This document shows positions 13,391 to 38,738 of a stretch of DNA of 64,000 nt, in pieces. Both the position numbers and the translations under genes were made by a program. Within the stretch, counting starts at the first letter, position 1; each line of letters opens with the position of its first letter. The notes beneath the pieces were generated by a model, which saw only the letters and a program-made list of their open reading frames with translations, searched no databases and was not told the DNA's origin. The stretch is from a virus: positions 42,831 through 106,830 of IMG/VR virus record IMGVR_UViG_3300025545_000003. One strand, 5' to 3'.

Positions 13391-14802
13391 TACTCCAGCC
13401 CCTTGAGGTTGGCGACCGGGAACAGGCGCAGGGTCATCTTGGCGATGCCCTCGTCCTCCAACACCCGGAGCACAGCGTTGAGATCCTTGTAGGCGTGGCC
13501 GCACTCGTCCAGCGGCGTCCGCTCCGAGTTCATGACGATGCCCTCGACGATGGTTCCGTCCGCGCAGACGACACGGGCGTCCCGCATCTCCTCGTCGATC
13601 TCATCGTGGATTGCCCGAAGCTCACGCTTGGCCTCCCCACGTCCCATGAGCCGTCCGGCCCCGTGGTTGACGGAGCAGCCCGTCTTCCTCGTCCCGGAGA
13701 GCGGGAACAGGATCGCAGCCCCGTCCTTCATGGAACCGGGGATCAAGCACGGGTGGCCCGTCTCAGCCCACTTCGTGCGGGCGAGATCCGGGTGTCCAGC
13801 CGGGAAGGCACGGGTCGCCCCCTTGCGGTGAACGAAGCCCTCCGTCAGCGAACCGTCCGGCAGGTAGATGCGCTCCTGCTGGATCAGGTTGTGGCTGATC
13901 TCGTACAGGGTCTCAGACTCAGCCCCTCCGAACACCGTCGCCGTGGCGTCCGCCAGCCCTCTGGCTATGACGTGCCTGTTGGCGATGGCGTAGTTGGCCG
14001 CCGAGTTGTGGTGCGCCCAATACTCCTTCCCGAGATCCTCGTCCATGCGGAGGTAGGACTCCTCCCGTCGCTTGGACTGGAGGCACCGCAATCGGGCACC
14101 CTCGTAGAAGTAGTGGTTGGCCGTGTGCCACCCGTACCCACGGGAGCCGCAGTGCAGCATCAGCCAGACAGAGGAGTCCGTCGGGTCTACCTGCATCTCG
14201 ATGAAGTGGTTCCCACCACCGAGGGATCCCATCTGCGGGACGGCCTTCGGCCACGCCCGGTCGATGCGGTTGGCCTTGAAGTGCGCCGTGTCCACACGCA
14301 TGAAGACACGCTCGCACTCGTCCGCCGTGACACCCACCGGCTCTCCGCCGTGGGCAAGCATCTCCTGCACGTCCGTCCACCCGTAGGTCGGCATCTTGAC
14401 CGGACGGTGCGAACCGAGGCCCGTGGCTACACGCTCCTCAACCGCATGAATCCACTCCAGCCGCTTGGCCGGATCGACGATGTCCGCCGCCTTGAGGCTC
14501 GTCTTCATGTAGAGGACGCCGCACGAGATGTCGTAGCCGGAGCCTGACTGGACCAGCGTGTCGTCGGTCACGATGACGCTGCCGATGGGAACCCCGAACC
14601 CGAAGTGGGTGTCCGGCATCAGGAAGGCGTGAGTCACACCCTTGTAGGATGCGGCCTGTACAGCCTGTGCCCAGAGCCCCTCTTCGGTGGCCTCCCATAG
14701 TTCCTTGGTGAGGAAAGCTGTGACGTCGCACCGCATCCCGGCCCGTGCGGGCAGGACACAGCAGTTGTCAGTCAGCCAGTGGATGTCGTACTTGTGAGAC
14801 AT
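13390..14802 (-). CDS. rtcB: RtcB RNA ligase
   Basis: PDTHFG, GYDISCG, SLGGGNHFIE, HCGSRG, HRKGAT, PGSM, HGAGR, YKD. Confidence 0.96.
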   Translation of the reverse strand: MSHKYDIHWLTDNCCVLPARAGMRCDVTAFLTKELWEATEEGLWAQAVQAASYKGVTHAFLMPDTHFGFGVPIGSVIVTDDTLVQSGSGYDISCGVLYMKTSLKAADIVDPAKRLEWIHAVEERVATGLGSHRPVKMPTYGWTDVQEMLAHGGEPVGVTADECERVFMRVDTAHFKANRIDRAWPKAVPQMGSLGGGNHFIEMQVDPTDSSVWLMLHCGSRGYGWHTANHYFYEGARLRCLQSKRREESYLRMDEDLGKEYWAHHNSAANYAIANRHVIARGLADATATVFGGAESETLYEISHNLIQQERIYLPDGSLTEGFVHRKGATRAFPAGHPDLARTKWAETGHPCLIPGSMKDGAAILFPLSGTRKTGCSVNHGAGRLMGRGEAKRELRAIHDEIDEEMRDARVVCADGTIVEGIVMNSERTPLDECGHAYKDLNAVLRVLEDEGIAKMTLRLFPVANLKGLE

Positions 14803-26078: not shown

Positions 26079-26615
26079 TCCCCTCACTTTTTAGAGGTTC
26101 ACCACCATCACCACCACAACTACGGCAACACCTACGGCAACCCGTGGGGCACCCGCAGCCTCCTGGGTAGTAACAACACCCTCAGTAGCCACAGCCGCAG
26201 CCGTAGCGCCTCCAAGGGCATCGGCAGCGCCACGAAGGGTGCAGGCGGCCAGTCCGTAGACTACGGGTGTAACACCATCGGTGAGAGGAGCATGGACTTC
26301 GTCGAGGACAGCCTCTGCTCCACCGAGTGTTCGGTGGCAGCGGCGTCGGCCAGCTTCGAGGACGAGGCACCCAGCAGGGGCATCCTCCGGGACGTCGGCA
26401 CGAAGTACGGCCACGAGGTCTCTTTCCACACGACCGAGACCACGTTCACCAAGGCCACGGACGCCCCGGTACTCGTCTGCACGCTGCGCTACGCCACCCG
26501 TGAGCGGCTGGAGACGTGGGGCGTGCCCCTCAAGCCCAAGTCGGGACCGGAAGCGCCCCAGGCGTTCCCTGCGTCCATGGACGGTTGCCCCGCCCCGAGC
26601 GGCTGGAACGGATAA
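26079..26615 (+). pseudogene. Open frame with His6 run and no upstream start; probable 5'-truncated gene (internal ATG 26292)
   Basis: Frame continues directly from the MBL TGA: SPHFLEVHHHHHHNYG... Confidence 0.5.
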
Positions 26616-26668
26616 TCCCATCCTTCTCCCTCTTGCCCCCGGTACAATGGGGGTAGGAGGGAGCCCAC

Positions 26669-26992
26669 ATGTCCAAGTTCACCGTCGACTGTTTCACCGA
26701 GAAGTCACTCCCGGAGCCGGGGTTCCCTGAGAACACCTACGAGGCGGCCACCGTGCTGGAGGCTGCGGCTGTTGTCCATAACTGCACCCGCAAGCAGGCC
26801 GGGATCAGGATGGTTCAGATCTGGATCGAAGAGCCGGACGACCGAGAGGCCGTCGACACGCTCAAGACGTGCCGGTGTGGGACGAAGGGATGCGATACAA
26901 AGCGCATTGACCCTGACGAGGTAGCGAAGGCGCTGGGGGCGGAGAAGGCCGTGAAGCCGAAGAACCTGCCCCGCAGGCCGGGGACACGGTAG
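26669..26992 (+). CDS. Hypothetical protein
   Basis: AGGAGG RBS. Confidence 0.6.
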   Translation: MSKFTVDCFTEKSLPEPGFPENTYEAATVLEAAAVVHNCTRKQAGIRMVQIWIEEPDDREAVDTLKTCRCGTKGCDTKRIDPDEVAKALGAEKAVKPKNLPRRPGTR

Positions 26993-27079
26993 GCGGAAGC
27001 GGAGGGAGTCGAACCCTCAAGGCCGTAAAGCTCGCCTGTTTTCAAGACAGGTGCCGTCGCCACGTCGGCTGGCGCTTCC
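26992..27079 (-). tRNA. tRNA-Ser(TGA)
   Basis: CCTGT-CTTGAAA-ACAGG; long variable arm; G73. Confidence 0.92.
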
Positions 27080-27101
27080 AAGTTGAACAGTAGGTCTTCG
27101 T

Positions 27102-27192
27102 TGGCGGAAGGAGGGGGAGTCGAACCCCCAAGGCGCTCATCACGCTCGACCACTTTCCAAGCGGCTGCCATCACCAATTGGCTTGCCCTTCC
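27102..27192 (-). tRNA. tRNA-Ser(GGA)
   Basis: GCCGC-TTGGAAA-GTGGT; GCCA end. Confidence 0.92.
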
Positions 27193-27196
27193 AAAG

Positions 27197-27283
27197 TGCG
27201 ACCGGAGGGATTCGAACCCTCACGCCAGTCATTGTTGACACTGGCCCCTCAAGCCAGCGCGTCTACCATTCCGCCACGGTCGC
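27197..27283 (-). tRNA. tRNA-Leu(GAG)
   Basis: CTGGC-TTGAGGG-GCCAG. Confidence 0.92.
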
Positions 27284-27288
27284 ATGAG

Positions 27289-27370
27289 TGCTGCCGGTGG
27301 GACTCGAACCCACACACCTCAAGGGCACGGGCCTCTCAGACCCGCATGTCTACCATTCCATCACGACAGC
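27289..27370 (-). tRNA. tRNA-Leu(GAG), second copy
   Basis: CGGGT-CTGAGAG-GCCCG. Confidence 0.9.
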
Positions 27371-27377
27371 ATAGAAA

Positions 27378-27492
27378 GCACCCCAGCACGTAGGGAACCA
27401 CGGGTTGGTTACCGCTGGCCGCCCACTCCTCCCAGAAGTGCTGCTTCTCTGTGGTCTTGGACACCCCTGATCTACAGCCCCGGCTGGGGTGC
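27378..27492. ncRNA. Unidentified structured RNA (~115 nt)
   Basis: Perfect 10-bp terminal helix GCACCCCAGC/GCTGGGGTGC filling the gap between two tRNAs. Confidence 0.5.
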
Positions 27493-27495
27493 CTT

Positions 27496-27585
27496 TGGCG
27501 GAAGGACGGGGAGTCGAACCCCGAAGGCCGGTTAAGGCTCGCTGGTTTTCGAAACCAGTGCAGTCGCCCATCTGCTTGCCCTTCC
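27496..27585 (-). tRNA. tRNA-Ser(CGA)
   Basis: CTGGT-TTCGAAA-ACCAG; GCCA end. Confidence 0.92.
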
Positions 27586-27586
27586 A

Positions 27587-27662
27587 TGGAGCGCTCGCCC
27601 GGACTTGAACCGGGGACCACCGGCTTCGGAGGCCGGGACTCTATCCACTGAGCTACGAGCGC
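27587..27662 (-). tRNA. tRNA-Arg(CCG)
   Basis: CCGGC-CTCCGAA-GCCGG; CCA end. Confidence 0.93.
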
Positions 27663-27665
27663 AAA

Positions 27666-27818
27666 GGTGGGGGAGGTAGGAATCGAACCTACAATGCCCT
27701 CTCGGGCGGTCTGCTTTACAGGCAGATGTCTATACCTTGCTGAAGTCGCAACAGAGTTCCCGACCGGGGTCAGGATAAGGTCGTCACAACGAGTAGCGTG
27801 ACTTTTGACCACTCCCCC
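27666..27818 (-). tRNA. tRNA-Tyr(GTA) with ~65-nt insertion in the D-loop
   Basis: GGGGGAG/CTCCCCC-A; TCTGC-CTGTAAA-GCAGA; 76 nt between D-stem strands GTC/GAC. Confidence 0.8.
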
Positions 27819-27822
27819 ATAG

Positions 27823-27895
27823 AGCCAACGACGGGAATCGAACCCGTAACCCCTTGCTTACCATGCAAGTGCTCTACCGTTGGAGCTACGTTGGC
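27823..27895 (-). tRNA. tRNA-Thr(GGT)
   Basis: CTTGC-ATGGTAA-GCAAG. Confidence 0.92.
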
Positions 27896-27913
27896 ATGCT
27901 TGAATCAGACAAG

Positions 27914-27985
27914 AGCCCAGTACCGGAGTCGAACCGATGTCAGCGGGTTACAAATCCGCTGCTCTGCCACTTGAGCTAACTGGGC
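27914..27985 (-). tRNA. tRNA-Thr(TGT)
   Basis: GCGGA-TTTGTAA-CCCGC. Confidence 0.9.
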
Positions 27986-28018
27986 AAATCAGGTGCTCTA
28001 CCGTTGAGCCACGCTAGC
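27986..28018 (-). pseudogene. 5' half of a tRNA (Thr-like) truncated in the anticodon loop
   Basis: GCTAGCGTGGCTCAACGGTAGAGCACCTGATTT abuts the next tRNA. Confidence 0.75.
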
Positions 28019-28022
28019 AAAG

Positions 28023-28094
28023 AGCCGAAGGTCGGAATCGAACCGACAACCTGCCGCTTACGAAACGGCTGCTCTACCATTGAGCTACATCGGC
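28023..28094 (-). tRNA. tRNA-Thr(CGT)
   Basis: GCCGT-TTCGTAA-GCGGC. Confidence 0.92.
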
Positions 28095-28149
28095 AAAGTG
28101 CGACCGGGGGGAGTCGAACCCCCACGCCTCAAAGGCACCGGATTCTAAG

Positions 28150-28229
28150 TGGCTGAGGTGGGAGTCGAACCCACACGCCCTAAGCGCCCGCCTCTAAAAC
28201 GGGTGCGTCTACCGTTCCGCCACTCAGCC
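28150..28229 (-). tRNA. tRNA-Leu(TAG), nested replacement copy
   Basis: GGCTGAG/CTCAGCC; CCCGT-TTTAGAG-GCGGG. Confidence 0.92.
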
Positions 28230-28724
28230 TTTTTCTTGTTTGGTCACGGAGGTCAACCCTTTGCTATTACACCACCCAGGTTGTTGGGAGTGGCAGTTAG
28301 GGCACAGGAATCGTAAGTTTTCAGGGCGGTTGTCTAACCAGTCTCGGTTGATGTGGTCCACCTGTAGCATGAGGGGTTTCCCGACCCACACTCCCTCGAT
28401 CCCACAAGATTCGCACGCATAGGGCCGCCCACTGTCAAGGAGAGCCCTCCGTAAGCGGTACGCTGCGGTACGCCTCCCTGTGTCCTTCTTTGACAGGGTA
28501 GTTAGCCACGGAGTCTTTCCCGGGCCTCCCTTATGGGCTGTTCCCTTGTTGGATCCTTGACCGTGGAAATGGACTGTGTCGAGTCCGTATTCCCGTACCT
28601 TACGGGTGATGTGCGTTTGTGTCCCGCCCGCCTGTTTCACCCCCAAATCTCGAAGCACGCCCGCCATGGAAGTGTTCTGTTGAACAAGTGGGGCTAGGAT
28701 CTCTTTTGTGTAACGTCGTCCCAT
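28224..28724 (-). CDS. HNH homing endonuclease
   Basis: CESCG...LQVDHIN...DNRPENLRFLCPNCHS. Confidence 0.92.
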   Translation of the reverse strand: MGRRYTKEILAPLVQQNTSMAGVLRDLGVKQAGGTQTHITRKVREYGLDTVHFHGQGSNKGTAHKGGPGKTPWLTTLSKKDTGRRTAAYRLRRALLDSGRPYACESCGIEGVWVGKPLMLQVDHINRDWLDNRPENLRFLCPNCHSQQPGWCNSKGLTSVTKQEKG

Positions 28725-28791
28725 ACACAGCTTACGGTATAGGCTAGCAACCGGAACCGGCGTGTCTACCGTTTCACCACGGTCGCAAAGG

Positions 28792-29635
28792 ATGACCACC
28801 CGTAGCCGGGATCCTGTTTTATGGACACATTCATCTAGTGGCCCCTACCCGTCCGCATAGCGCTGCTCACCCGCTCTTGGCCCAACCCCGATGCCGAGAG
28901 CGTTGCCCTGAAAAGAGCTTCTGCATTCCTTGGCGTGTAAGGCCGTGACGTTGGCAGAACAGATTGAGGGACGGGGTCACTTCGTGTTCAGCCCCGTCAG
29001 GAGAACGGACTTTGGGGTAGGGCTGCTTCTTCTTAGTGCGGCTGATCGCCGCCTTTTCCGCTTCCGTTGGGGAAGCCTTCCGACCACCCGATCCCACAGC
29101 GTTCTTATTGCCCCGCTGCAAAAGTGACAGGGCTTGCTTCGTTTCTTCTGTATGCTTGTAACCCAGGCTGTTGCCTGCTTCTGGGAGGATGTTGTACTTC
29201 TTGGCTTTCGGGGTCTTGTCCAACCACTCCTGTTCCTTCTCCAAGAGCTTGTCGTGGGCCGCCTGAACAAGCACAAAGAAGCAAATGTCCTCTTCACCCC
29301 TCTTGGCAAAGGCTCGTTGTAAGGGGGTGTTATGGTGGGTGCCTTTTCGAAGAAGCCTCCCATGTGCTGAGAACCTCTTGTAGAGATCCACTGCGGACCC
29401 GATGTAGAGCTTCCCCGAAGCCCTACTTCTGATGGCATAGACACCGCTCTTACCGTGTAGCGCAGAATAAGGGGTACCTTTCATGGAAGGGTCCAATTTC
29501 ATAGGCCAAAGATACCACGTTCCTGTTTGGGTTGCACCCTCGGAAGTGCGAACGGCCTACGGCCTCCTTCCTTCAGCAGTGGTGTCCCGAGCTTCCTCAC
29601 ATCCCTTGCGGGGTAGTGCGTGCCCTCAGTGGTCA
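28792..29635 (-). ncRNA. rnpB: Minimal RNase P RNA (~210 nt) interrupted by a GIY-YIG ORF
   Basis: GAGGAAGCTCGGGA (CR-I) pairs with ACAGGATCCCGGCTA (CR-V) as P4 with bulged U; P1 TGACCAC/GTGGTCA; P2 GGGCACG/TGTGTCC; AGATGAATG; GGGTAGG L15. Confidence 0.85.
28867..29502 (-). CDS. GIY-YIG homing endonuclease with NUMOD3-like motif (start may be 29484)
   Basis: SGVYAI...LYIGSA...R...E...YN; SLGYKHTEETK. Confidence 0.92.
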   Translation of the reverse strand: MKLDPSMKGTPYSALHGKSGVYAIRSRASGKLYIGSAVDLYKRFSAHGRLLRKGTHHNTPLQRAFAKRGEEDICFFVLVQAAHDKLLEKEQEWLDKTPKAKKYNILPEAGNSLGYKHTEETKQALSLLQRGNKNAVGSGGRKASPTEAEKAAISRTKKKQPYPKVRSPDGAEHEVTPSLNLFCQRHGLTRQGMQKLFSGQRSRHRGWAKSG

Positions 29636-29720
29636 TGGTGCCAGAGGGGGGACTCGAACCCCCACGCCTCAAGGACAGACGGTTTTGAACCGACCGCGTC
29701 TACCATTCCGCCACTCTGGC
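29636..29720 (-). tRNA. tRNA-Leu(CAA)
   Basis: GTCGG-TTCAAAA-CCGTC; ACCA end. Confidence 0.92.
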
Positions 29721-29728
29721 AAGTAAGT

Positions 29729-29817
29729 TGGTGGAGGAGGTGGGATTCGAACCCACTCACCGCAACGCGGACCAGATTTACAGTCTGGCGTGACTCTCCA
29801 ACTTCAACCGCTCCTCC
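29729..29817 (-). tRNA. tRNA-Tyr(GTA)
   Basis: CCAGA-CTGTAAA-TCTGG; ACCA end; atypical D arm. Confidence 0.88.
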
Positions 29818-29821
29818 AAAG

Positions 29822-29893
29822 TGGAAAGGGGTGGAATCGAACCACCGACACGGGGATTTTCAGTCCCCTGCTCTACCTCTGAGCTACCCCTCC
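29822..29893 (-). tRNA. tRNA-Phe(GAA)
   Basis: GGGGA-CTGAAAA-TCCCC. Confidence 0.93.
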
Positions 29894-30294
29894 ATGCGTT
29901 TCCAGTCCCCGAACTCCTCCTTGCCGCCCCTGCACCCCCAGTCCGAGTCGATGACCAGGCGGGACGAGATCCCGCCACGGGGCCGGAGGTCCGCTACGAG
30001 GCGCAACCGGGCCGGTTCATAGACCGCCACGAGATCCTCGTAGATGACGTTGATGAGGCGTTCGTAGGAGATCACCTTGGACCTGAAGGCCACCACGTAC
30101 TCCTTGAGTGCCTTCAGTTCGATGATCCAGTCCGCCGGGTAGAAGACCAACGTCAGGTGACCGAAGTCCGGTTGCTGTTTGACGCCCATGAACGTCAACT
30201 CCGGGATCTCCATCCTGATCTCGTACCCGTCTGGGTCGGGGTTCGGCAGCCTCTTCAGCTTGTCCTTCTCCGACCACTTGTCATGCTTGCCCAT
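29884..30294 (-). CDS. QueF-like T-fold protein lacking the catalytic Cys
   Basis: PELT...QPDF...ELKALK-x-Y...FR...SYE...PRGGI; no Cys at the EFTSLCP position. Confidence 0.85.
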   Translation of the reverse strand: MGKHDKWSEKDKLKRLPNPDPDGYEIRMEIPELTFMGVKQQPDFGHLTLVFYPADWIIELKALKEYVVAFRSKVISYERLINVIYEDLVAVYEPARLRLVADLRPRGGISSRLVIDSDWGCRGGKEEFGDWKRMEG

Positions 30295-30333
30295 GTCGTT
30301 CCCCCTTGTTGTCCGGGGAACTATACCGATCAG

Positions 30334-30407
30334 TGCCAAGGGGCGGGATCGAACCGCCGACACCCCGGATTTCACCCGAGTGCTCTACCTACCTGAGCTA
30401 CCTTGGC
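30334..30407 (-). tRNA. tRNA-Phe(GAA), second copy
   Basis: CTCGG-GTGAAAT-CCGGG. Confidence 0.88.
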
Positions 30408-30411
30408 AGAA

Positions 30412-30485
30412 GGCAGAGGTAGTGGGAATCGAACCCACCCGACGGTCGGTTTTGGAGACCAACCCGCTTACCCAGAGCCACCTCT
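30412..30485 (-). tRNA. tRNA-Trp(CCA)
   Basis: TTGGT-CTCCAAA-ACCGA; G73; short D arm. Confidence 0.85.
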
Positions 30486-30519
30486 ACAAGAATGTGCGGG
30501 GAATCGAACCGGGGCTTTG

Positions 30520-30975
30520 CTAGCGAATGAACTTGAGGGCTTGGGCGTTGACCATCTTCAGGATGTCACGGGGGGACATGGAGGCGAAGGAGGTCATCGA
30601 CATGGAGTGCGTGCTGGTTTCCTCGTCCTCGATCCCCTTTTCCTCTACATAGACGAACACCCACCACTGTACCTGGTTGCGTTGGAAGTCGGGGGTGAAG
30701 TACGCGATGACGTGGTCCTCACCCGGAGTCGAGGACTGGCTGGGGGAGGGGAGATTCGGGAAAGCGATCTCCACAGTCATCCCCTTCCTGTAAATCTCGC
30801 CCACATGGTCGGCCTGCGTGGCCTTGCCGACCTTCTTCATCCACTGGAAGAATGCCTTGTGGAACAGACCGATAAGGTCACCCGTTGCCGCCTCTTTCCG
30901 CAGAAGGGGCAGGATGTGCTTGCGGGTTTCAGGTACTTCATGGGCCAGTCTGACCAGTTCGCTTTTAAGATCCAT
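30520..30975 (-). CDS. Hypothetical, possibly virion-internal protein
   Basis: AGGAGG RBS; N-terminus LKSELVRLAHEVPETRKHILPLLRKEA. Confidence 0.65.
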   Translation of the reverse strand: MDLKSELVRLAHEVPETRKHILPLLRKEAATGDLIGLFHKAFFQWMKKVGKATQADHVGEIYRKGMTVEIAFPNLPSPSQSSTPGEDHVIAYFTPDFQRNQVQWWVFVYVEEKGIEDEETSTHSMSMTSFASMSPRDILKMVNAQALKFIR

Positions 30976-31017
30976 GGGGTCCTCCTGTGTCCCTAATGGA
31001 ACCTTATAGCCCAAGTA

Positions 31018-31102
31018 GGTGCCAGAGGGGGGACTCGAACCCCCACGCCTCAAGGATATCCGGGCTTAAACCGGATGCGGCTACCAGTTACGCCATCCCG
31101 GC
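31018..31102 (-). tRNA. tRNA-Leu(TAA)
   Basis: TCCGG-TTTAAGC-CCGGA; 3' half identical to that of Leu(CAA). Confidence 0.85.
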
Positions 31103-31111
31103 GTATGAAAG

Positions 31112-31197
31112 TGGATGATCAAGGAATCGAACCTTGCTGCCGCGTCAGCGGACCGGGGTTACAGCCCAGCGCAAGCACCAGCTTGACCGTATCATCC
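31112..31197 (-). tRNA. tRNA-Tyr(GTA) with atypical D arm
   Basis: GGATGAT/ATCATCC-A; CTGGG-CTGTAAC-CCCGG; D arm CAAGC-TGGT-GCTTG. Confidence 0.8.
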
Positions 31198-31200
31198 AGA

Positions 31201-31289
31201 GGCGGAGGGAGAGGGAGTCGAACCCTCAAGGCCGATTAAGGCTCGTCCGGTTAGCAACCGGGTGCAGTCACCGATCTGCTTGCCCCTCC
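31201..31289 (-). tRNA. tRNA-Ser(GCT)
   Basis: CCCGG-TTGCTAA-CCGGA. Confidence 0.92.
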
Positions 31290-31301
31290 GTGAATTGGAC
31301 C

Positions 31302-31410
31302 GGGTCGCTCTTATCGTCTTCCTGGGGCGTTGCCACCCCGCAGACGTTTATCCACGACCAACCGCTGTACAAGCGGCTGCGCTATCCCCCGAGGGGGAGC
31401 CCAACGACCC
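31302..31410 (-). ncRNA. Unidentified four-arm structured RNA (~110 nt)
   Basis: GGGTCGTT/AGCGACCC closing helix with three internal hairpins, one GNRA-capped. Confidence 0.55.
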
Positions 31411-31414
31411 AAAG

Positions 31415-31497
31415 TGCTGCTGAAAGGAGTCGAACCTTCACGCCCCGAAGGACACTTGGACCTGAACCAAGCGCGTCTACCATTCCGCCACAGCAGC
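31415..31497 (-). tRNA. tRNA-Leu(CAG)
   Basis: CTTGG-TTCAGGT-CCAAG. Confidence 0.93.
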
Positions 31498-31551
31498 AAA
31501 GAACGGTGCTGGAAGCTGGGCAACTCCCAGCACCGAAGACCTACTATTCAA

Positions 31552-31590
31552 TTGTCAAAGACCCTCTGGCCGCCGCCCTGTGGCAGAGGC
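31552..31590 (-). promoter_or_regulatory. boxB-like hairpin plus boxA-like GTCTTTGACAA
   Basis: Resembles rrn-leader Nus antitermination signals; lies between the terminator and the first tRNA. Confidence 0.6.
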
Positions 31591-31599
31591 CCTAAACGC

Positions 31600-31633
31600 A
31601 AAAAGCCCGCTCCGGGTGTGTCCGGGCGGGCTT
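31600..31633 (-). terminator. Attenuator (intrinsic terminator) of the tRNA operon leader
   Basis: AAGCCCGC-CCGG-loop-CCGG-A-GCGGGC-TTTTT. Confidence 0.85.
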
Positions 31634-31655
31634 CCAAGGTCAGCAGATGTTGTGC

Positions 31656-31754
31656 TTACCCCGTTACACCCTCCGGCGCACTCGTGGACAGATACGACCA
31701 GCCGGTAAGGCTGACGTGCGTCCGCAAGCTGAAGGTTGTAAATAAGGTCTGCAT
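31656..31754 (-). CDS. Leader peptide MQTLFTTFSLRTHVSLTGWSYLSTSAPEGVTG
   Basis: AGGAGAG RBS, 32 codons, stop 22 nt before the terminator; too short for the ORF track. Confidence 0.8.
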   Translation of the reverse strand: MQTLFTTFSLRTHVSLTGWSYLSTSAPEGVTG

Positions 31755-31778
31755 CTCGGTCTCTCCTGTTCGCCCCTG

Positions 31779-31807
31779 ACGCTAGAGGCCCTTTGGGCTC
31801 CTGTCAA
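31779..31807 (-). promoter_or_regulatory. Sigma70-type promoter TTGACA-N17-TAGCGT; a GGCTTAG motif lies upstream at 31850-31877
   Basis: Consensus -35, 17-bp spacer. Confidence 0.75.
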
Positions 31808-31929
31808 GGCTTTTCTCACGAAGATCCCCACAGGGGGGCTTCACGTCCGTCCACACAGAACAGGAAGGGCCTAAGCCCCTTGCCGGTAGATTCGTTATGA
31901 GGCTACTCCAGTAGGACATGGAGGCCCGC

Positions 31930-32529
31930 ATGAGCAAGCACACGAACCGGGTAGCAGCCCGGTATATTAAGAGAGCCGCCAGCGAAGACCGCAAACAGTT
32001 CGACATGGGCGTCAAGGCCATCGGGACATCGCTCCTGCGGATGAAGGACGTGGTCTTCCTCTGGACAGGGAGGGGAACACCCCCTCCGGGACACGGGGCA
32101 GAGGGCTACGAGTCCCTGGCTGACGTGTACGGCCCTGTGCAGCATGTCGTGAACAAGATCGAGGACCTTGAGAAAGCCTACATCAGCCTCAAGCGTGTTC
32201 GTGTGGCCTCCAAGCGGATGGACCCCAAGTTCAAGCGGGCCGTCATTCCGTTGTTCAAGCGGGCAGGCCTGGATGGCAACGGGCGGTTCAGGAAGCCCCA
32301 ACACGGGTACTCCAAGGCGTTGGACATCCTCGCCAAGTTCGAGATCGAACTGGACGACGTCGTGTCGTCCCACCTGTTCAACGGGGACAGCGGGACGATC
32401 CGGGCGGACCTGGCCTATTCGAACTCAGAGGACCCGTTCTCCCCTGAGTCGATTTCCAACTCGGTGCTGGTCATTTCGTTCACTAAGATGGCCAAGGACA
32501 GCTATGAGGTGCTGGCGTATCTGTCATGA
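31930..32529 (+). CDS. Hypothetical, possibly virion protein
   Basis: GGAGG RBS; N-terminal RVAARY motif. Confidence 0.65.
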   Translation: MSKHTNRVAARYIKRAASEDRKQFDMGVKAIGTSLLRMKDVVFLWTGRGTPPPGHGAEGYESLADVYGPVQHVVNKIEDLEKAYISLKRVRVASKRMDPKFKRAVIPLFKRAGLDGNGRFRKPQHGYSKALDILAKFEIELDDVVSSHLFNGDSGTIRADLAYSNSEDPFSPESISNSVLVISFTKMAKDSYEVLAYLS

Positions 32530-32714
32530 AACGACTGGCCCCGAGGGTACTGGCCGCTATGAAGCAACACCCGGAGTTCAGAGAGTACAAGAAAGCCCTC
32601 ATGGGTTGCTGTAGGGCACCGCAAGACAAGGTGATGCGCCGACGGCTGGTCGCCTTCAGTCTCCAGAATCCCAAGTTCCAGCCCATCATCACGGGGATCC
32701 TGGTCAATGCCTGA
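32526..32714 (+). CDS. Hypothetical protein
   Basis: ATGA coupling. Confidence 0.5.
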   Translation: MKRLAPRVLAAMKQHPEFREYKKALMGCCRAPQDKVMRRRLVAFSLQNPKFQPIITGILVNA

Positions 32715-32880
32715 GCTTCACCTCTATGACTTCGACGGCACCCTGTTCCGGTCCCCAGAGGAACCGAAGTGGTGGAGCGACGTGTCGAAGAAGAACTGGT
32801 GGACCTCCGCACCCTCCCTCGATGAGCCCTGTGTCCCCCGGCAGCCAAAGTTCAAGTACACGGGCAAGAACAAGCCCTAG
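32707..32880 (+). pseudogene. Truncated HAD-family (RNA-repair HAD_SAK-like) fragment
   Basis: MPELHLYDFDGTLFRSP...WW, stops after 57 aa. Confidence 0.6.
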
Positions 32881-32914
32881 CCCTCATGTCCCACGCTATC
32901 GGGTAGAATGAGGC

Positions 32915-34483
32915 ATGAAGAGCACGCCGAAACATATCAGGCACGGACTCACCGCCCGCAACCCCCTCCTCGAAGGAGCCCTCGCACTGGCCCGTGCGGT
33001 TGCCGTCACCTACGGTCCACATGGGCGTATCGCCTTGTTAGATAGATTCGCAGGGCTTCTCCCCACGAAAGATGGGGTCACAGTGGCGAGGGAGATCCAG
33101 TTGGAAGGCCCGAGGGCTCTCGGGGCGGACATCCTTAAGTACTCCTGCATAGCCCTGAATGATAAGTGCGGGGACGGAACAACCACCGCCGCCATCGTCA
33201 GCGCCGCCCTCCTTCGGGAAGGCCACAAGCGGATCGTGGCCGGGGTGGAACCGAGGACGGTTTGCAACGAGTTGCAAACCGCCTCCGAGAGAGCCATCGA
33301 GGCCATCCGTGAGATGTCCGTCCGGGCCGACAACCAGAAGGACCTGGATCACGTAGCCCGCATCGCCAGCAACGGAGACGATGACGTGGCCCGGTGCCTC
33401 GCTGAAGGTGCCATGGCCGTCGGCAAGGACGGGACGATCTCCATCGAGGACGGCTATGGCACGGAGACCGTGTTGGAGTACAAGGACGGCTTCGAGTGTG
33501 ACGCCCGCCTAGCCTCCCACCACTTCCAAGGCCCAGAGGGTGCCCTCAAGTTGGAAGGTGCCCTCGTGGCGGTGGTCAACCAGCCCATCCACCAGGTGAC
33601 AGACGTGGTCTCCCTGTTGGAGGAAGCCTCCCAGTGGCCCAACAACCCGCTGCTGATCTTCGCCCCCTCGTTCAGCGGGATGGTCAACATGACCATCGGC
33701 ATGAACATCAAGGCGTCGAACGTCACGGCTTACCCGGTGCTGGCTCCGGGCGTCCACGTCCAGAAGGTCGAGTACCTGAAGGACATCGCCGCCATGGCTG
33801 GGGCCGTGTTCATTGACCCGGAGGCGGGCCAGAGCGTTAGGAAGTGGCAGCCGGAGTGGTTCGGCTCCTTGCGCCGTGCGACCGTCGGCATGAAGTCCTC
33901 CCTGTTGGAAGGCTATGATGAGCCGGACAAGCAGGCAGCCCGTGACGCACGCATCCGGGAACTGGAGGGCTTGGAGCGCACTACCACCTCTGAGTTCGAC
34001 CTGGACAGGATCAAGGAGCGCAAGGCCAAGCTCGCCGACGGCTTCGTGATCCTACGGGTGGGCGGCATCACCGAGTCCGCTATGAAGGAACGCCGTGCCC
34101 GTGTGGAAGACGCCTTTGGAGCCGTCAGGGCGGCCCTCAGAGAGGGCCTGGTTCCCGGTGGCGGCACAGTGTACCTCCGGGCCGCCGAAGCGCTCACAGG
34201 GGAAGCACGGGGCACAGGGGGCGACATTCTCCGCAAAGCCCTCCAGGCCCCCGCACTGATGTTAGCTGGTAACGCGGGCCTCGACCCTCACGCTGTCCTG
34301 CACCAGATCGCTGAACACGATTCTCCGTGGGGCGGACTAGACGCCCGCACCGGACAAGTAAGGGACCTGTCACAGGACCCCAAGATAGTAGACCCCACAG
34401 CAGTAGCGGTTGAGGTGGTACGTGCCGCCGTGTCCGTTGCTGTAACTCTGCTGACGGTCGAGTGCTCCGTTGGCAAGGCTTAG
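32915..34483 (+). CDS. groEL: Divergent GroEL-like chaperonin
   Basis: TYGPHGR, TKDGVTVA, GDGTTT, RVGG, VPGGG, IVDP. Confidence 0.93.
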   Translation: MKSTPKHIRHGLTARNPLLEGALALARAVAVTYGPHGRIALLDRFAGLLPTKDGVTVAREIQLEGPRALGADILKYSCIALNDKCGDGTTTAAIVSAALLREGHKRIVAGVEPRTVCNELQTASERAIEAIREMSVRADNQKDLDHVARIASNGDDDVARCLAEGAMAVGKDGTISIEDGYGTETVLEYKDGFECDARLASHHFQGPEGALKLEGALVAVVNQPIHQVTDVVSLLEEASQWPNNPLLIFAPSFSGMVNMTIGMNIKASNVTAYPVLAPGVHVQKVEYLKDIAAMAGAVFIDPEAGQSVRKWQPEWFGSLRRATVGMKSSLLEGYDEPDKQAARDARIRELEGLERTTTSEFDLDRIKERKAKLADGFVILRVGGITESAMKERRARVEDAFGAVRAALREGLVPGGGTVYLRAAEALTGEARGTGGDILRKALQAPALMLAGNAGLDPHAVLHQIAEHDSPWGGLDARTGQVRDLSQDPKIVDPTAVAVEVVRAAVSVAVTLLTVECSVGKA

Positions 34484-34522
34484 CCCAGTGTTTTCACGGG
34501 TTGAAGAAGTAGGAGGTGGGAA

Positions 34523-34696
34523 ATGGAAGCACTTGGTTTGACACTCGGAGCCCTTGTCATATTCGGCAAGGCTATCGGCCTGTTCCTGCTCATCTTCCTC
34601 CCCTGTTGGGTGCTGGCACGCCTCGGGAAGGGTTACAAGAGGTGGGAGCGCCGACAGAGGGAGAGCGAATGGTCGATCAAGCTGATCCCGGACTGA
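34523..34696 (+). CDS. Small membrane protein (57 aa)
   Basis: GGCTTAG promoter 34477-34504; AGGAGGT RBS; MEALGLTLGALVIFGKAIGLFLLIFLPCWVL. Confidence 0.6.
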   Translation: MEALGLTLGALVIFGKAIGLFLLIFLPCWVLARLGKGYKRWERRQRESEWSIKLIPD

Positions 34697-35109
34697 CACC
34701 GCCCGCAGAACTGAAGCTCAAGGGCACGAACAACGAACACAAAACCATCGTGGTTGAGGTACGGATCTGCCAGAACCCGAACGGGATGATCTACTCCTCC
34801 CACAACCTACAGGACGCCGGGGACGAACGGGTGTCGAAGGGCATGCTGGGGCATGGCACACAGGCCATCGCTTACGGACTGCTGATCGAAGCCCTGCGCC
34901 GTGAGGCGTACCTGTCCACGCTGGCACAGTTGACCGGGGACAAGGATTTCCTCACCAAGTACAAGGATGGGGACGAGAAAACCCGTGAGGCGTTGGAGCG
35001 CAAGGTGGCCGAAACCCTCCGTCATGTCGTCAACTCCATCATCGAGAAGAACGGCACGGACATGTCGAAGGAAGTCCTGCACATGGCCCTGAAACAGATC
35101 GGTCGCTAG
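34669..35109 (+). CDS. Hypothetical protein
   Basis: GGAG RBS before MVDQ. Confidence 0.6.
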   Translation: MVDQADPGLTPPAELKLKGTNNEHKTIVVEVRICQNPNGMIYSSHNLQDAGDERVSKGMLGHGTQAIAYGLLIEALRREAYLSTLAQLTGDKDFLTKYKDGDEKTREALERKVAETLRHVVNSIIEKNGTDMSKEVLHMALKQIGR

Positions 35110-35157
35110 GTGCTCGCCCGTCAAGTTTCGGGTATCCTATGCAGGAGAGGTGATGTG

Positions 35158-35406
35158 ATGACCAAGTCGAGTGCTGCACTGGCGATCAAACGCCCGGTCC
35201 TGTTCAGGAAGTTCCGGGGCCTCAACGATGAGGATCCGCCTGACGTAGAGACCCCCACAGACCCGCAGGAGGCCATGGAGTTGGGCTACAAGCTCGGACT
35301 CAAGCGTGGGTGGGGCGAGGGACTAGCGGACGGCGTGGACGTTGGGTTGGATGTTGGCGTCGAGGTAGCAGCGGAAGCCGCAGAAGAACCCTTCGACGTC
35401 AATTAG
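35158..35406 (+). CDS. Hypothetical protein
   Basis: GAGGTG RBS; GxxxG repeats. Confidence 0.5.
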   Translation: MTKSSAALAIKRPVLFRKFRGLNDEDPPDVETPTDPQEAMELGYKLGLKRGWGEGLADGVDVGLDVGVEVAAEAAEEPFDVN

Positions 35407-35669
35407 CCTTTCCTCAACCGTACTCCCCCCTTCAAACGAATAACCAACGACGACGGCACGACGACTCCGTCTTCCGGTCGGCCCATCGGCGGGACAACTA
35501 CTCGAGACTTCGTGCGGTGTGTTCGGAACACGCCCAAGGGGGTTCGGACGGAATCATCCTCTTCCAAGGACAGGAGTGCGTCTGGCAGGCAGAACATGAC
35601 TGCCCGTACCTGTTCAGCGGGGACACCCGAAAACCGGGCGATCTTCTGTATCAAAAAATCGTATCTCAT
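35403..35669 (-). CDS. HU/IHF-like DNA-binding protein
   Basis: LIQKIA..SGV, V..LGVF..., size ~88 aa. Confidence 0.7.
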   Translation of the reverse strand: MRYDFLIQKIARFSGVPAEQVRAVMFCLPDALLSLEEDDSVRTPLGVFRTHRTKSRVVVPPMGRPEDGVVVPSSLVIRLKGGVRLRKG

Positions 35670-35780
35670 CTGCACCCTTCCGTAGAGCCCGAGGGACTCT
35701 CCTACCATACCCTTGGGTTCAATGATCGTCCTATGACGAGGCATAGGTAGAGCGCTCTACGGGACTCTCTGGAGGTCACT

Positions 35781-36230
35781 ATGCCCCAAGGCAAACTGTT
35801 CAAGATGGCGAGTACGCTCGACGACGCCGTTCTTCGGACTGCCGCACAGGACGAAGATGCACGACGTTTCCTGCTTGCTCTCCACCGGCAGGCCAAGGGC
35901 TGGGACAAGCTCCCGAAGGGCTGGACGCAGGAGAGCGTCAAGAAGTTCTGGTCGTCCCTGACCGGGGACGTGAAGCACAAGGTTACGAAGTGCATCAAGG
36001 AGATGGACGGGAAGTTCGACGACCCTGGTGCCTTCTGCGCTTCCCTGGCCGACATGGTGACCCCCGGCTGGCGCACCAAGAAGACCGCCTTCAACAAGTA
36101 CAACGCCCCCGAGGTGCTGGCCCAACTGTTCAAGGCCCTTTCCGCCGCCGGGTTGGATGACGCTGTGGCGAACCTCCGGCAACGGAAGGTCCCGCAGATC
36201 GTGGACAAGGCATGGAGGGATCGAGGGTGA
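35781..36230 (+). CDS. Hypothetical, possibly virion protein
   Basis: GGAGGT RBS; K/R-x-A motifs. Confidence 0.65.
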   Translation: MPQGKLFKMASTLDDAVLRTAAQDEDARRFLLALHRQAKGWDKLPKGWTQESVKKFWSSLTGDVKHKVTKCIKEMDGKFDDPGAFCASLADMVTPGWRTKKTAFNKYNAPEVLAQLFKALSAAGLDDAVANLRQRKVPQIVDKAWRDRG

Positions 36231-37150
36231 ACAAGCAAGCCGCAGCAGCCGTAGACCCCGTCCGCCAGCGGACTCAGTACACCTGCACTAAAGGGATCAA
36301 CTGGGACGATGCCCCTTTGGGCAAATTGTCTGATGGTGATGTGGCTCGCATGTATAAGGTCGCCCGTCCTGTGGTCTGTAATGCCCGCAATCGAAGAGGC
36401 ATCCCGCCCTTCACGTCACGGTATGTAAATGTGGTGTGGGATGATGTTCCTCTTGGTGGTTTTCCAGATGCTGTGCTGGCAAAGGAGCTTGGAGTGTCCG
36501 AGCCCACGGTTTCACGGCATCGTAACCAGAAAGGCATATGCCCCTTCCAGTCAAGGTTCATCACCACTGAGGGGGAGGCTGCACAAAGCTACCCAGAAGC
36601 CCTCATCGATCTTTTTTGGCATGAACAGGACATTGCACATCAATTCCAAGTCCCAATCGGCCCCTACGTGGCTGATTGGGTGGTGGGAAACACCGTAGTT
36701 GAGTACGCAGGGTTCATCGAAAGCCGAACTTTTGGGGACAGGTACCGGGAGAGGCTCGCTGTCAAGGTCTCCTTCTACAAGTCGCAGGGGTGGCATGTGC
36801 AGGTCATCTACCCCAATGACCTGGAATCTTTCAAGCCCAAAGGTTCGCCTGAAATGACACGGGACATCATCTCAGGAGGTGTTAATTGGTCAGGACAACC
36901 TCTCGGGAAAATGACGGACATGGATCTTGCATCTCGTCTGGGTGTCGGACAGACGACGGTGTCCCGATGGAGAAACATCTTTGGGATTGCCCCCTACAAG
37001 AAAAAGAAGCGGGACTGGACTCATGAGCCTCTCGGAAAGATGCCCGACCCGGCACTTGCAGCTCGTTTAGGGGTGAGCAAAGAAACTGTCCGACGTGCTC
37101 GTGTCATGTTCGGGATCCCGTCTTACAGGAGTGTCTGTCATGCAGCGTGA
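36227..37150 (+). mobile_element. Putative homing endonuclease (PD-(D/E)xK/Vsr-like core flanked by four HTH repeats) fused to the old peptidase N-terminus
   Basis: YVADW...VVEYAG core; repeats W-x3-PLG-x2-D-x2-LA-x2-LGV; low GC; starts with a copy of the peptidase N-terminus. Confidence 0.7.
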
Positions 37151-38738
37151 GGCCAAAGCAAACGTGACCCCTGTAAGGCAACGCACTCAATTTTCGTGCA
37201 TGAGTTGCTCCATGATGATGTGCCTCAAGGCCAACGGGGTCGACACGAACGAGGACGAGGTGAACCGGGTCATGGGTGCCAAGCCCATGCAGGGTGCCGC
37301 CTGGGAGGAAGCCCTGGCCGCGGCCCAGCACTACGGCATGCGGGCTACCCTCACCGTTCCAGCTACCGTCCAGCAGTTGAAGAAGTGGACTGACCGGGGC
37401 GTCCCCGTGATGATCGCTTGGAACCCCGAAGGCCGGGACTGGTCCCACGCCTCTGTGGTGTTCGACGTGGACGAGGACCTCAACGTCTACGTGGCCGACC
37501 CCAACATCCCGGACCCCGATGAGACCGTCCGCATCGTTCCCAAGGCCGAGTTCTACGGCAAGTGGTACGAGAAGTGGCCGAACTACCTCGTGCGTCGGCC
37601 CGCGATGGCCGTCGAGCGTGAGGTGTCCCCCGAGGGTCGCCAGATGGTCGCCAGCAAGGTGCCCGCCGACGCTGAGCCCGTGAAGGGCACCAAGTTCTTC
37701 GTCTCGAAGAAGCCCTCGAAGAGCCCCTACCGTGGCCAGCCTGAGCAGTTCAAAATCTTCAACGAGCACGGCGGCGTGGTCGGGGGATATCCCGACCGGG
37801 GTGAAGCCATCGCCAAGGCCAAGAAGATGAAGACGGCCAAGACCCTCATGCAGGTCAAAGTGAAAAACAAGGCCCCTCGTGACCCCGGCGCTGCACGCCA
37901 CGGGAAGCCGGGCGGAGCCGCAGGCGCTCACCACAACCGCGACCGCGACGTGTCCAAAGGGCGGAGCCGCAAGCCCAAGCACAAGAAGCCGATGGTGGAG
38001 CGTGAGGCGTCCCTGTTGGAGAAGCTGGCCCGGATCGACGAGAAGGACATGAACCGGGCCGCCCAACTCCTCCAGTACATGACTGAGAAGGAAGCGATGA
38101 AGCACCTCGTGAAGCAGGGGATGCATCGTCAAAACGCTTTCTTGGCGCTTAAGGCGGGCAAGATCCTCAACAAGGACCATAAGGGGCGCCTCGCCGCTTC
38201 CAAAGAGGCAGGCTACAAGGGGAACCCAGATGGCAAGGACATCTACCCAAACGAGATCGAACACGGGTACGGTGAGCCCATCGCTGGAGGAACTGACGTG
38301 ATGCGACAACTACAGAACAAGCTCATCCATGAACAGGGTGATGCAGTACCACAGCGGCCCGAGAGCCCCCGGATGGCCAGTCAGCTTTCCCTCTCCTCTG
38401 GTAAACCAGACCCCAAGATGACGGCTGCATTGAAGCAACGAGCCGAAAGGAAATTGCTCCGTTCCCGTAGCAAAGGTGATTTTGAGGGGGCATTGATGTC
38501 GGCTGGTTTCCACGCGAGGAAACACAGCACGACCGCCTTCGTCTATGCAGGCAACAGCTACGGGGCCGGTGTGTGGCGTGTCTCTTTCAAGGCAGGGGAA
38601 TACCTGAACCCCATCAACAACACAGGGGTCCGGGTACTGTCAGTGACCCCAGACCTCGACGTGACGGTCTTCCAAATCAAACAACGCCCCAGGATGGCCG
38701 CCCGTGTGGCCCACCTGTACCTCAAGAGGAGCCAGTAA
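37140..38738 (+). CDS. C39-like cysteine peptidase with long C-terminal extension
   Basis: Q-x5-C, WSHASVV, ADPN catalytic pattern. Confidence 0.75.
   Translation: MQREAKANVTPVRQRTQFSCMSCSMMMCLKANGVDTNEDEVNRVMGAKPMQGAAWEEALAAAQHYGMRATLTVPATVQQLKKWTDRGVPVMIAWNPEGRDWSHASVVFDVDEDLNVYVADPNIPDPDETVRIVPKAEFYGKWYEKWPNYLVRRPAMAVEREVSPEGRQMVASKVPADAEPVKGTKFFVSKKPSKSPYRGQPEQFKIFNEHGGVVGGYPDRGEAIAKAKKMKTAKTLMQVKVKNKAPRDPGAARHGKPGGAAGAHHNRDRDVSKGRSRKPKHKKPMVEREASLLEKLARIDEKDMNRAAQLLQYMTEKEAMKHLVKQGMHRQNAFLALKAGKILNKDHKGRLAASKEAGYKGNPDGKDIYPNEIEHGYGEPIAGGTDVMRQLQNKLIHEQGDAVPQRPESPRMASQLSLSSGKPDPKMTAALKQRAERKLLRSRSKGDFEGALMSAGFHARKHSTTAFVYAGNSYGAGVWRVSFKAGEYLNPINNTGVRVLSVTPDLDVTVFQIKQRPRMAARVAHLYLKRSQ

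Follow-up and report, generated by a model that had tools for sequence, protein, structure and literature searches.

The split tRNA gene described here lies in a 64,000 nt stretch of viral DNA (hereafter the window), taken from a linear record of 106.8 kb with a G+C content of 62% that holds 52 tRNA genes and a tmRNA gene. As this record is estimated to be about 20% complete, the genome carrying the locus is that of a very large phage. On the minus strand of the window, a tRNA-Leu(TAG) gene is present as two separate pieces. In brief, the 5' piece (28757-28786, nt 1-30 of the tRNA) holds the 5' strand of the acceptor stem, the D arm and four bases of the anticodon stem. The 3' piece (28099-28150, nt 31-82), recognised by direct reading from its orphan T arm, is 52 nt long and holds the last base of that stem strand, the loop CTTAGAA, the 3' stem strand, the variable arm and the T arm, and ends with the 3' strand of the acceptor stem, complementary to 28786-28780 at all seven positions, and the discriminator. 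The 5' piece on its own is part of no ARAGORN or Rfam tRNA call. When 28786-28757 and 28150-28099 are joined, ARAGORN reports a class II tRNA-Leu(TAG) of 82-83 nt with seven of seven Watson-Crick pairs in the acceptor stem and complete D (3/3), anticodon (5/5) and T (5/5) stems. No base is lost or duplicated; the 5' strand of the anticodon stem is interrupted between nt 30 and nt 31. When pieces of 30 and 52 nt were drawn at random from the window and joined, a tRNA was called for one join in 20,000. ARAGORN, it should be noted, becomes permissive as soon as either partner is a genuine tRNA half, and we therefore place the weight on the exact complementarity of the acceptor and anticodon stems across the break.

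The whole stretch between the two pieces is a cassette of 606 nt (28151-28756, minus strand) consisting of a 32 nt leader, an HNH endonuclease gene and a second, complete tRNA-Leu(TAG), and nothing else. The HNH gene (28224-28724, minus strand) encodes 166 amino acids, starting with ATG at 28724 and ending with TGA at 28226-28224. The inner tRNA (28150-28229, minus strand) is called by ARAGORN and scores 53.7 bits against the Rfam tRNA model. The TGA of the nuclease gene forms nt 4-6 of this tRNA (GGC TGA G), so the original prediction of a stop codon within the first bases of the inner tRNA was correct. The same holds for its description of the locus as two rejoinable halves broken in the anticodon stem with an HNH gene and a second tRNA between them, which was confirmed by direct reading, ARAGORN and Pfam. 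The outer 3' piece begins immediately at the 3' end of the inner tRNA. A28150 is ambiguous, as it serves both as discriminator of the inner tRNA and as nt 31 of the outer tRNA, and the borders of the cassette can be shifted by one base. The left junction (28741-28760, minus strand) reads as a tandem CCGGTT-CCGGTT. We saw no homology at either junction of the cassette, nor, on reading the junctions, a helix closing its ends. The tandem is followed by CCGGTTGC, which resembles the 3' acceptor strand of the outer tRNA and which the minimum-energy fold pairs with the 5' acceptor strand; this is absent from the other nested loci described below and may be due to chance.

At 76% identity, the inner and outer tRNAs have nearly the same loops and differ in every stem by paired substitutions. 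Similarity was uninformative as to the origin of the two tRNAs, as all comparisons gave 68-76% identity. The inner tRNA is the sole tRNA-Leu(TAG) found by ARAGORN in the 106.8 kb record, and with the record about 20% complete the genome may carry others elsewhere. We found no promoter-like or terminator-like sites in 27900-29700, which fits read-through transcription of the tRNA array. A search of 26500-32000 against the Rfam intron families gave no match at E<=1.

The HNH protein matches Pfam PF01844 (E 3.6e-7) and PHROG 10822 (E 4.9e-48). In the family alignment C104, C107, H124, N136, C141, C144 and H145 are invariant, among them the CxxC pairs, the DH and the N, and all are kept in the window enzyme. 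The protein thus has the traits of an HNH enzyme (a catalytic His, a conserved Asn and zinc-binding Cys pairs) and belongs to the beta-beta-alpha-metal group. An AlphaFold model of the 166 amino acids (pLDDT 76.7) places strands followed by a helix at residues 119-146. The predicted build is an N-terminal three-helix domain resembling DNA-binding domains, a disordered linker (residues 56-68) and a C-terminal HNH domain. Fold searches gave weak matches (E >= 0.007) to the HNH domains of McrA, Cap5 and Gme and to helix-turn-helix domains, and a sequence search of solved structures gave weak matches to McrA only. A longer, GTG-started ORF running through the 5' tRNA piece was rejected as the gene, as the homologues share the ATG methionine. 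In the minimum-energy fold of 28786-28715 a predicted hairpin (28720-28743, minus strand) pairs the start codon of the HNH gene (CCUAUAC with GUAUGGG), although the fold of this region as a whole is not better than that of shuffled sequences (z -1.2). Stronger hairpins are predicted at the start regions of the related loci L035 (z -3.95), L107 (z -3.57) and L032 (z -2.6). Hairpins that bury the start are a known means of control of phage homing endonucleases (PMC2330249).

Relatives of the nuclease at 30-55% identity were found in 26 viral contigs and in at least 558 metagenome stretches. We analysed 88 loci, which form 70 clusters at 80% identity. In 53 of the 70 clusters a tRNA lies at most 100 nt downstream of the ORF or overlaps it, and in 43 of these 53 it is a tRNA-Leu (26 TAG, 10 GAG, 4 CAG and single others). 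Counting tRNA-Leu genes nearby on either side or strand raises the number to 54 of 70. The nuclease gene usually abuts or overlaps the 5' end of the tRNA-Leu; a few family members adjoin tRNAs for Val, Asp, Glu or Pro instead. A survey for nuclease stops overlapping tRNAs, as called for in the original prediction, found that, of the 43 clusters with tRNA-Leu downstream, 17 have an ORF running into the tRNA; these ORFs stop either at nt 8-10, where U8-A9-G10 is read as TAG, or in the anticodon loop. No introns were found at gathering score in the 17 related loci scanned. The best reading of these sequence associations is that the enzyme is a homing endonuclease of the free-standing type that dwells at tRNA-Leu genes. 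Its ORF stands alone, outside any intron or intein. Free-standing genes lie between genes and leave their neighbours intact; the cassette in the window, in contrast, splits a tRNA gene. At five loci of the family (L062, L069, L073, L075 and L102) a tRNA of 73-83 nt is encoded on the opposite strand. It follows or overlaps the end of the HNH gene directly in L069, L075 and L102, and lies farther downstream in L073 (about 280 nt from the homology match) and L062 (about 1,500 nt).

The family is also found in isolated phages of Escherichia, Salmonella, Citrobacter, Pseudomonas, Vibrio, Agrobacterium, Staphylococcus, Enterococcus, Gordonia and others; in Enterococcus phage EFDG1, for example, an annotated HNH gene overlaps a tRNA-Leu-TAG. 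In the Felix O1-like phages, hundreds of genomes have a tRNA array in common. Among those fetched, which are nearly identical, seven carry the gene (mistaenkt, EcSzw-2, PC79-13, Michonne, SP22, ECML-1 and pSJ21) and four aligned close relatives do not (Mijalis, Sf14, Sf17 and ESCO49). In all seven the gene is placed at the exact 5' edge of tRNA-Leu(TAG), bordered by the 9 nt repeat GATTTAATG, as in the comparison of the HNH site of E. coli phage mistaenkt (L108, 1489-2018) with L110 and L111. To judge by these alignments, presence and absence follow the pattern expected of a free-standing homing endonuclease.

The tRNA-Leu(TAG) itself is the same in Felix O1-like phages with and without the HNH gene. 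The adjoining tRNA can thus be a resident of the genome, and immunity needs no altered tRNA. This bears on two claims of the original prediction. The first was that recombination cannot separate the nuclease gene from its tRNA. Physically this is so at our locus, where the stop codon lies inside the tRNA, and in the 17 of 43 clusters with overlapping ORFs, but nuclease and tRNA do not always travel together, the Felix O1-like tRNA being resident and not cargo. The second was that the inner tRNA is a cleavage-resistant isoacceptor. Judged from the sequences compared, cleavage resistance of the tRNA is not a general trait of the family. A signature of an immune inner tRNA was sought by comparing the anticodon arms of tRNA-Leu genes linked and not linked to the nuclease, and these showed no consistent difference. 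A C-to-T change first noticed in mistaenkt was confined to one genus and was likewise rejected as a signature of immunity.

We did not find an empty allele of the window phage in cultured phages, viral contigs, metagenomes or genomes. A megablast search of 27600-29700 against cultured phages gave no matches, and neither did exact searches with the outer 3' piece against viral contigs or with the outer 5' piece against metagenomes and genomes. No related viral contig was found with the neighbouring QueF-like protein, and the outer 5' pieces of L107 and L035 had no matches in viral contigs. One locus with an intact junction, L001, was considered as a relative and rejected, as it shares the conserved anticodon arm only. 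The term homing element, as used in the original prediction, is supported for the enzyme family by its link to tRNA-Leu and by the Felix O1-like polymorphism, and not for the window phage, of which these searches found no relative.

Brute-force scans for junctions with ARAGORN were too permissive to define junctions and were dropped. Nested loci were instead sought by motif, as orphan D-arm pieces upstream and orphan T-arm-plus-acceptor pieces downstream of family loci, together with complementarity of the acceptor strands. Among the best 80 of at least 558 family loci surveyed in this way, five loci besides the window are nested, in various stages of decay. Both orphan pieces, with acceptor strands complementary at seven of seven positions, are present in the window, L035, L107 and L067, and the 5' piece only in L032 and L040. 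In the window the halves are complete and the nuclease is intact. L107 retains both halves, but its nuclease gene has an in-frame stop; in L067 part of the outer gene is missing, and in L040 the 3' piece is gone. The acceptor strands differ and covary between loci (GCGACCG, GCGTCCG, GCGAAGG and GGGCCTG), indicating hits on different tRNA-Leu genes. Each of the six orphan 5' pieces retains nt 1-26, and its likeness to tRNA is lost within nt 27-38. That all six breaks fall after the D arm, in this short interval, gives indirect support to the suggestion that the anticodon arm is the target. L035 carries an extra ORF of 64 codons (2553-2787), placed after the inner tRNA-Leu(gag) and before the outer 3' piece.

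Based on these observations, we suggest that a unit of an HNH gene and an overlapped tRNA-Leu(TAG) was inserted between nt 30 and 31 of a resident tRNA-Leu(TAG), that the resident halves are dead, that the inner tRNA does the decoding, and that the nuclease belongs to a family that is normally free-standing. We put the probability of this reading at roughly 0.7. The cassette is then best read as a homing nuclease gene and its own tRNA, captured together at a break in the resident gene, and the halves of the latter as dead remnants. Decay of the outer pieces in related loci indicates that they are not maintained, and hence not spliced; the intact halves in the window fit a recent insertion, and would fit selection on the halves too.

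The positions of the breaks and the two-domain build of the enzyme suggest how such a cassette may arise. In the predicted structure, the helix-turn-helix-like domain may bind a tRNA-Leu gene in its 5' part, and the HNH domain tethered to it would then cut some 30 bp downstream, in the anticodon stem. Between close relatives, homologous copying would repair the break and place the gene at the 5' edge of the tRNA. In a genome without matching flanks, the break might instead capture the nuclease gene together with a tRNA, the ends being joined without homology. A locus occupied in this way would be immune through disruption of the site, with no difference in the inner tRNA required, and we consider immunity of this kind more likely than immunity from a changed inner tRNA. 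The whole array is probably transcribed as one RNA. If RNase P cleaves where the inner tRNA begins, the nuclease message would lose its stop codon, which could keep the enzyme scarce. Stop-less messages are acted on by tmRNA, and the phage encodes one. The limit on expression by RNase P is suggested by analogy with segB of phage T4 (PMC2330249).

Homology is absent at both junctions and tRNA arrays are rich in short shared blocks. These facts would also suit a nuclease that is merely a bystander, the nesting being due to illegitimate recombination in a repetitive tRNA array and the HNH protein neither having made the break nor moving now. We regard this as unlikely. Other split tRNA-Leu genes, all broken within one short stretch, also enclose nucleases of this family, the family is site-specifically present or absent in cultured phages, and the window enzyme retains every catalytic residue. 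The layout also occurs six times in this genome, and the one other nuclease compared is of a different family.

The undamaged and fully complementary halves could be taken to form a tRNA that still works. Its pieces would be freed when the inner tRNA is processed, and would then pair or be ligated, for instance by RtcB, so that the phage has two species of tRNA-Leu(TAG). An RtcB is indeed encoded in the window (13399-14667), and the 3' piece would obtain its 5' end when the inner tRNA is processed at its 3' side. At the other side of the cassette, however, no cut is defined after nt 30, and the 5' piece stays joined to some 570 nt of nuclease mRNA. RtcB needs a 5' hydroxyl and cleavage of the RNase Z type yields a 5' phosphate, which counts against rejoining by RtcB. 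Split and intron-containing tRNAs of the archaeal type are marked by a bulge-helix-bulge or by complementary leader and trailer sequences, by a splicing endonuclease and by an RtcB ligase. At our locus RtcB is present, but no complementary leader-trailer helix was seen on reading the junctions, and a search for the splicing endonuclease (PF01974) in the 106.8 kb record, about 20% of the genome, gave no hits. As relatives moreover lose one or both halves, we consider a working outer tRNA very improbable.

Bacterial and phage tRNA genes, including those for tRNA-Leu, host group I introns in the anticodon loop (PMC3984707), and the insert could in principle be a degenerate self-splicing intron with a homing endonuclease, the outer tRNA being made by splicing. 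This is scarcely tenable, as no intron family was found at the thresholds given above in the region around the cassette or in the 17 related loci, the insert has only 32 nt that are neither ORF nor tRNA, and it sits in the stem and not in the loop. The original prediction that the element is non-splicing is thus upheld by the lack of intron matches, the little spare sequence and the decaying halves of the relatives. Least probable of all is a chimeric contig of two tRNA-Leu loci, which could be feared in a metagenome assembly with repeats shared between tRNA genes, as the halves fit to the base and the layout recurs five more times in the contig and in independent assemblies.

Free-standing homing endonucleases are known from phage tRNA clusters, as SegB of phage T4 (GIY-YIG) and F-TflI, F-TflII and F-TflIV of phage T5 (HNH) (PMC2330249; see also PMC13096335). 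SegB cuts inside tRNA genes and drives the inheritance of itself and of neighbouring tRNA genes. It recognises a T-loop motif and cuts at the 3' ends of tRNAs. Its gene has a stop codon placed where the following tRNA is processed, an arrangement proposed to restrict expression (PMC2330249). The window nuclease resembles SegB and the F-Tfl enzymes in being encoded by an intronless gene among tRNA genes, and the Felix O1-like members of the PHROG 10822 family are, like SegB, located between tRNA genes. Unlike SegB, the nuclease in the window is an HNH enzyme (PHROG 10822) and not a GIY-YIG enzyme, it is found together with a complete tRNA inside a tRNA gene with the same anticodon that is left in two pieces, and breaks of the window type fall in the anticodon stem and not at tRNA 3' ends.

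A parallel for the splitting itself is nrdA of Aeromonas phage Aeh1, which is split by mobE (PMC3045599), and the fractured genes with split inteins (PMC2677866). There, too, a free-standing endonuclease splits an essential gene without a surrounding intron or intein. These are protein genes, however, whose pieces reassemble, in the fractured genes by trans-splicing of the split intein. In our case an RNA gene is split, we see no sign of reassembly and a spare gene supplies the function; the loss of halves in relatives argues against pieces that reassemble as in nrdA-mobE. The tRNA genes with group I introns and homing endonucleases share with the cassette a selfish nuclease in the anticodon arm and retained decoding, but they are rescued by RNA splicing (PMC3984707), whereas the cassette would be rescued by a replacement gene, and a ribozyme core was not found. 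Finally, the conserved cyanobacterial HNH gene all8564, which resembles homing endonuclease genes, is linked to, and co-expressed with, a long, horizontally moving tRNA array (PMC8421152). It lies upstream of the whole array and is not fused to a single tRNA, and a split tRNA was not described. In the literature searched, outside of which most subscription journals fall, we came across no account of a cassette of nuclease and tRNA nested within a tRNA gene. The nested cassette is therefore new to the published record as searched, while free-standing homing endonucleases of tRNA clusters are already known.

Homing endonucleases are thought to persist in essential genes only by means of an intron or intein, or else to reside between genes. 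Here the damage is repaired by importing a spare copy of the gene and not by an intron or intein, a natural "cleave and rescue" design for an RNA gene. Selfish nucleases are thereby tied directly to how large phages gain, lose and exchange their tRNA genes. Among cultured phages of E. coli, Salmonella and Citrobacter some carry the gene and others lack it, so the target site, the cutting distance and biased inheritance can be measured with ordinary laboratory phages.

The tRNA-Leu cassette is one of six in the record. Five further nuclease-plus-tRNA cassettes were found, with tRNAs for Asn, Asp, Gln, Ile and Arg. All five were read directly. The Arg cassette lies at 1341-2006 of the window on the plus strand, and those for Asn, Asp, Gln and Ile lie at 32536-38734 of the genome, 10,300 to 4,100 bases before the window starts. 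In all five, the nuclease ORF ends within a complete tRNA at nt 8-10 (9-11 in Gln), and an orphan T-arm-plus-acceptor piece directly follows the inner tRNA. The right junction lies at the last base of the inner tRNA, as it does in the window cassette. Comparison with the Leu enzyme covered one of the five nucleases, that of the Arg cassette. It belongs to PHROG 2255 and has no similarity to the Leu nuclease beyond the HNH motif, showing that unrelated nucleases share the layout. We speculate, with less than even confidence, that such units form a general selfish class that breaks and replaces: the nuclease would destroy the tRNA gene of a rival or co-infecting phage and the linked tRNA would restore decoding, with convergent nucleases in the six cassettes, and the class might be a main driver of the turnover and spread of phage tRNAs. 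At the Arg nuclease gene, a hairpin pairs the ribosome-binding site.

Several other features were observed in the neighbourhood of the Leu cassette, all on the minus strand. An orphan 5' piece of 33 nt (27986-28018), comprising an acceptor strand GCTAGCG, a D arm, the stem strand CCTGA and a loop beginning with TTT, directly abuts a complete tRNA-Thr(tgt) at 27985-27913. No matching 3' piece was found within 26-32 kb, and the orphan may be a remnant of the nested design that is without a nuclease. A tRNA-like RNA of about 150 nt is found at 27665-27818. Its acceptor stem is GGGGGAG/CTCCCCC, it has a T arm, its anticodon arm carries GTA (Tyr), and its D region is longer by about 70 nt; it is missed by ARAGORN, and its only Rfam match is to tmRNA at 10.6 bits. 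Just upstream of the outer 5' piece, an ORF at 28867-29502 encodes an endonuclease with GIY-YIG and NUMOD3 domains. Farther upstream, 30414-30486 and 31113-31197 match the Rfam tRNA clan at about 40 bits and resemble tRNA-Sec; they are not called by ARAGORN and are probably further class II tRNAs of the array.
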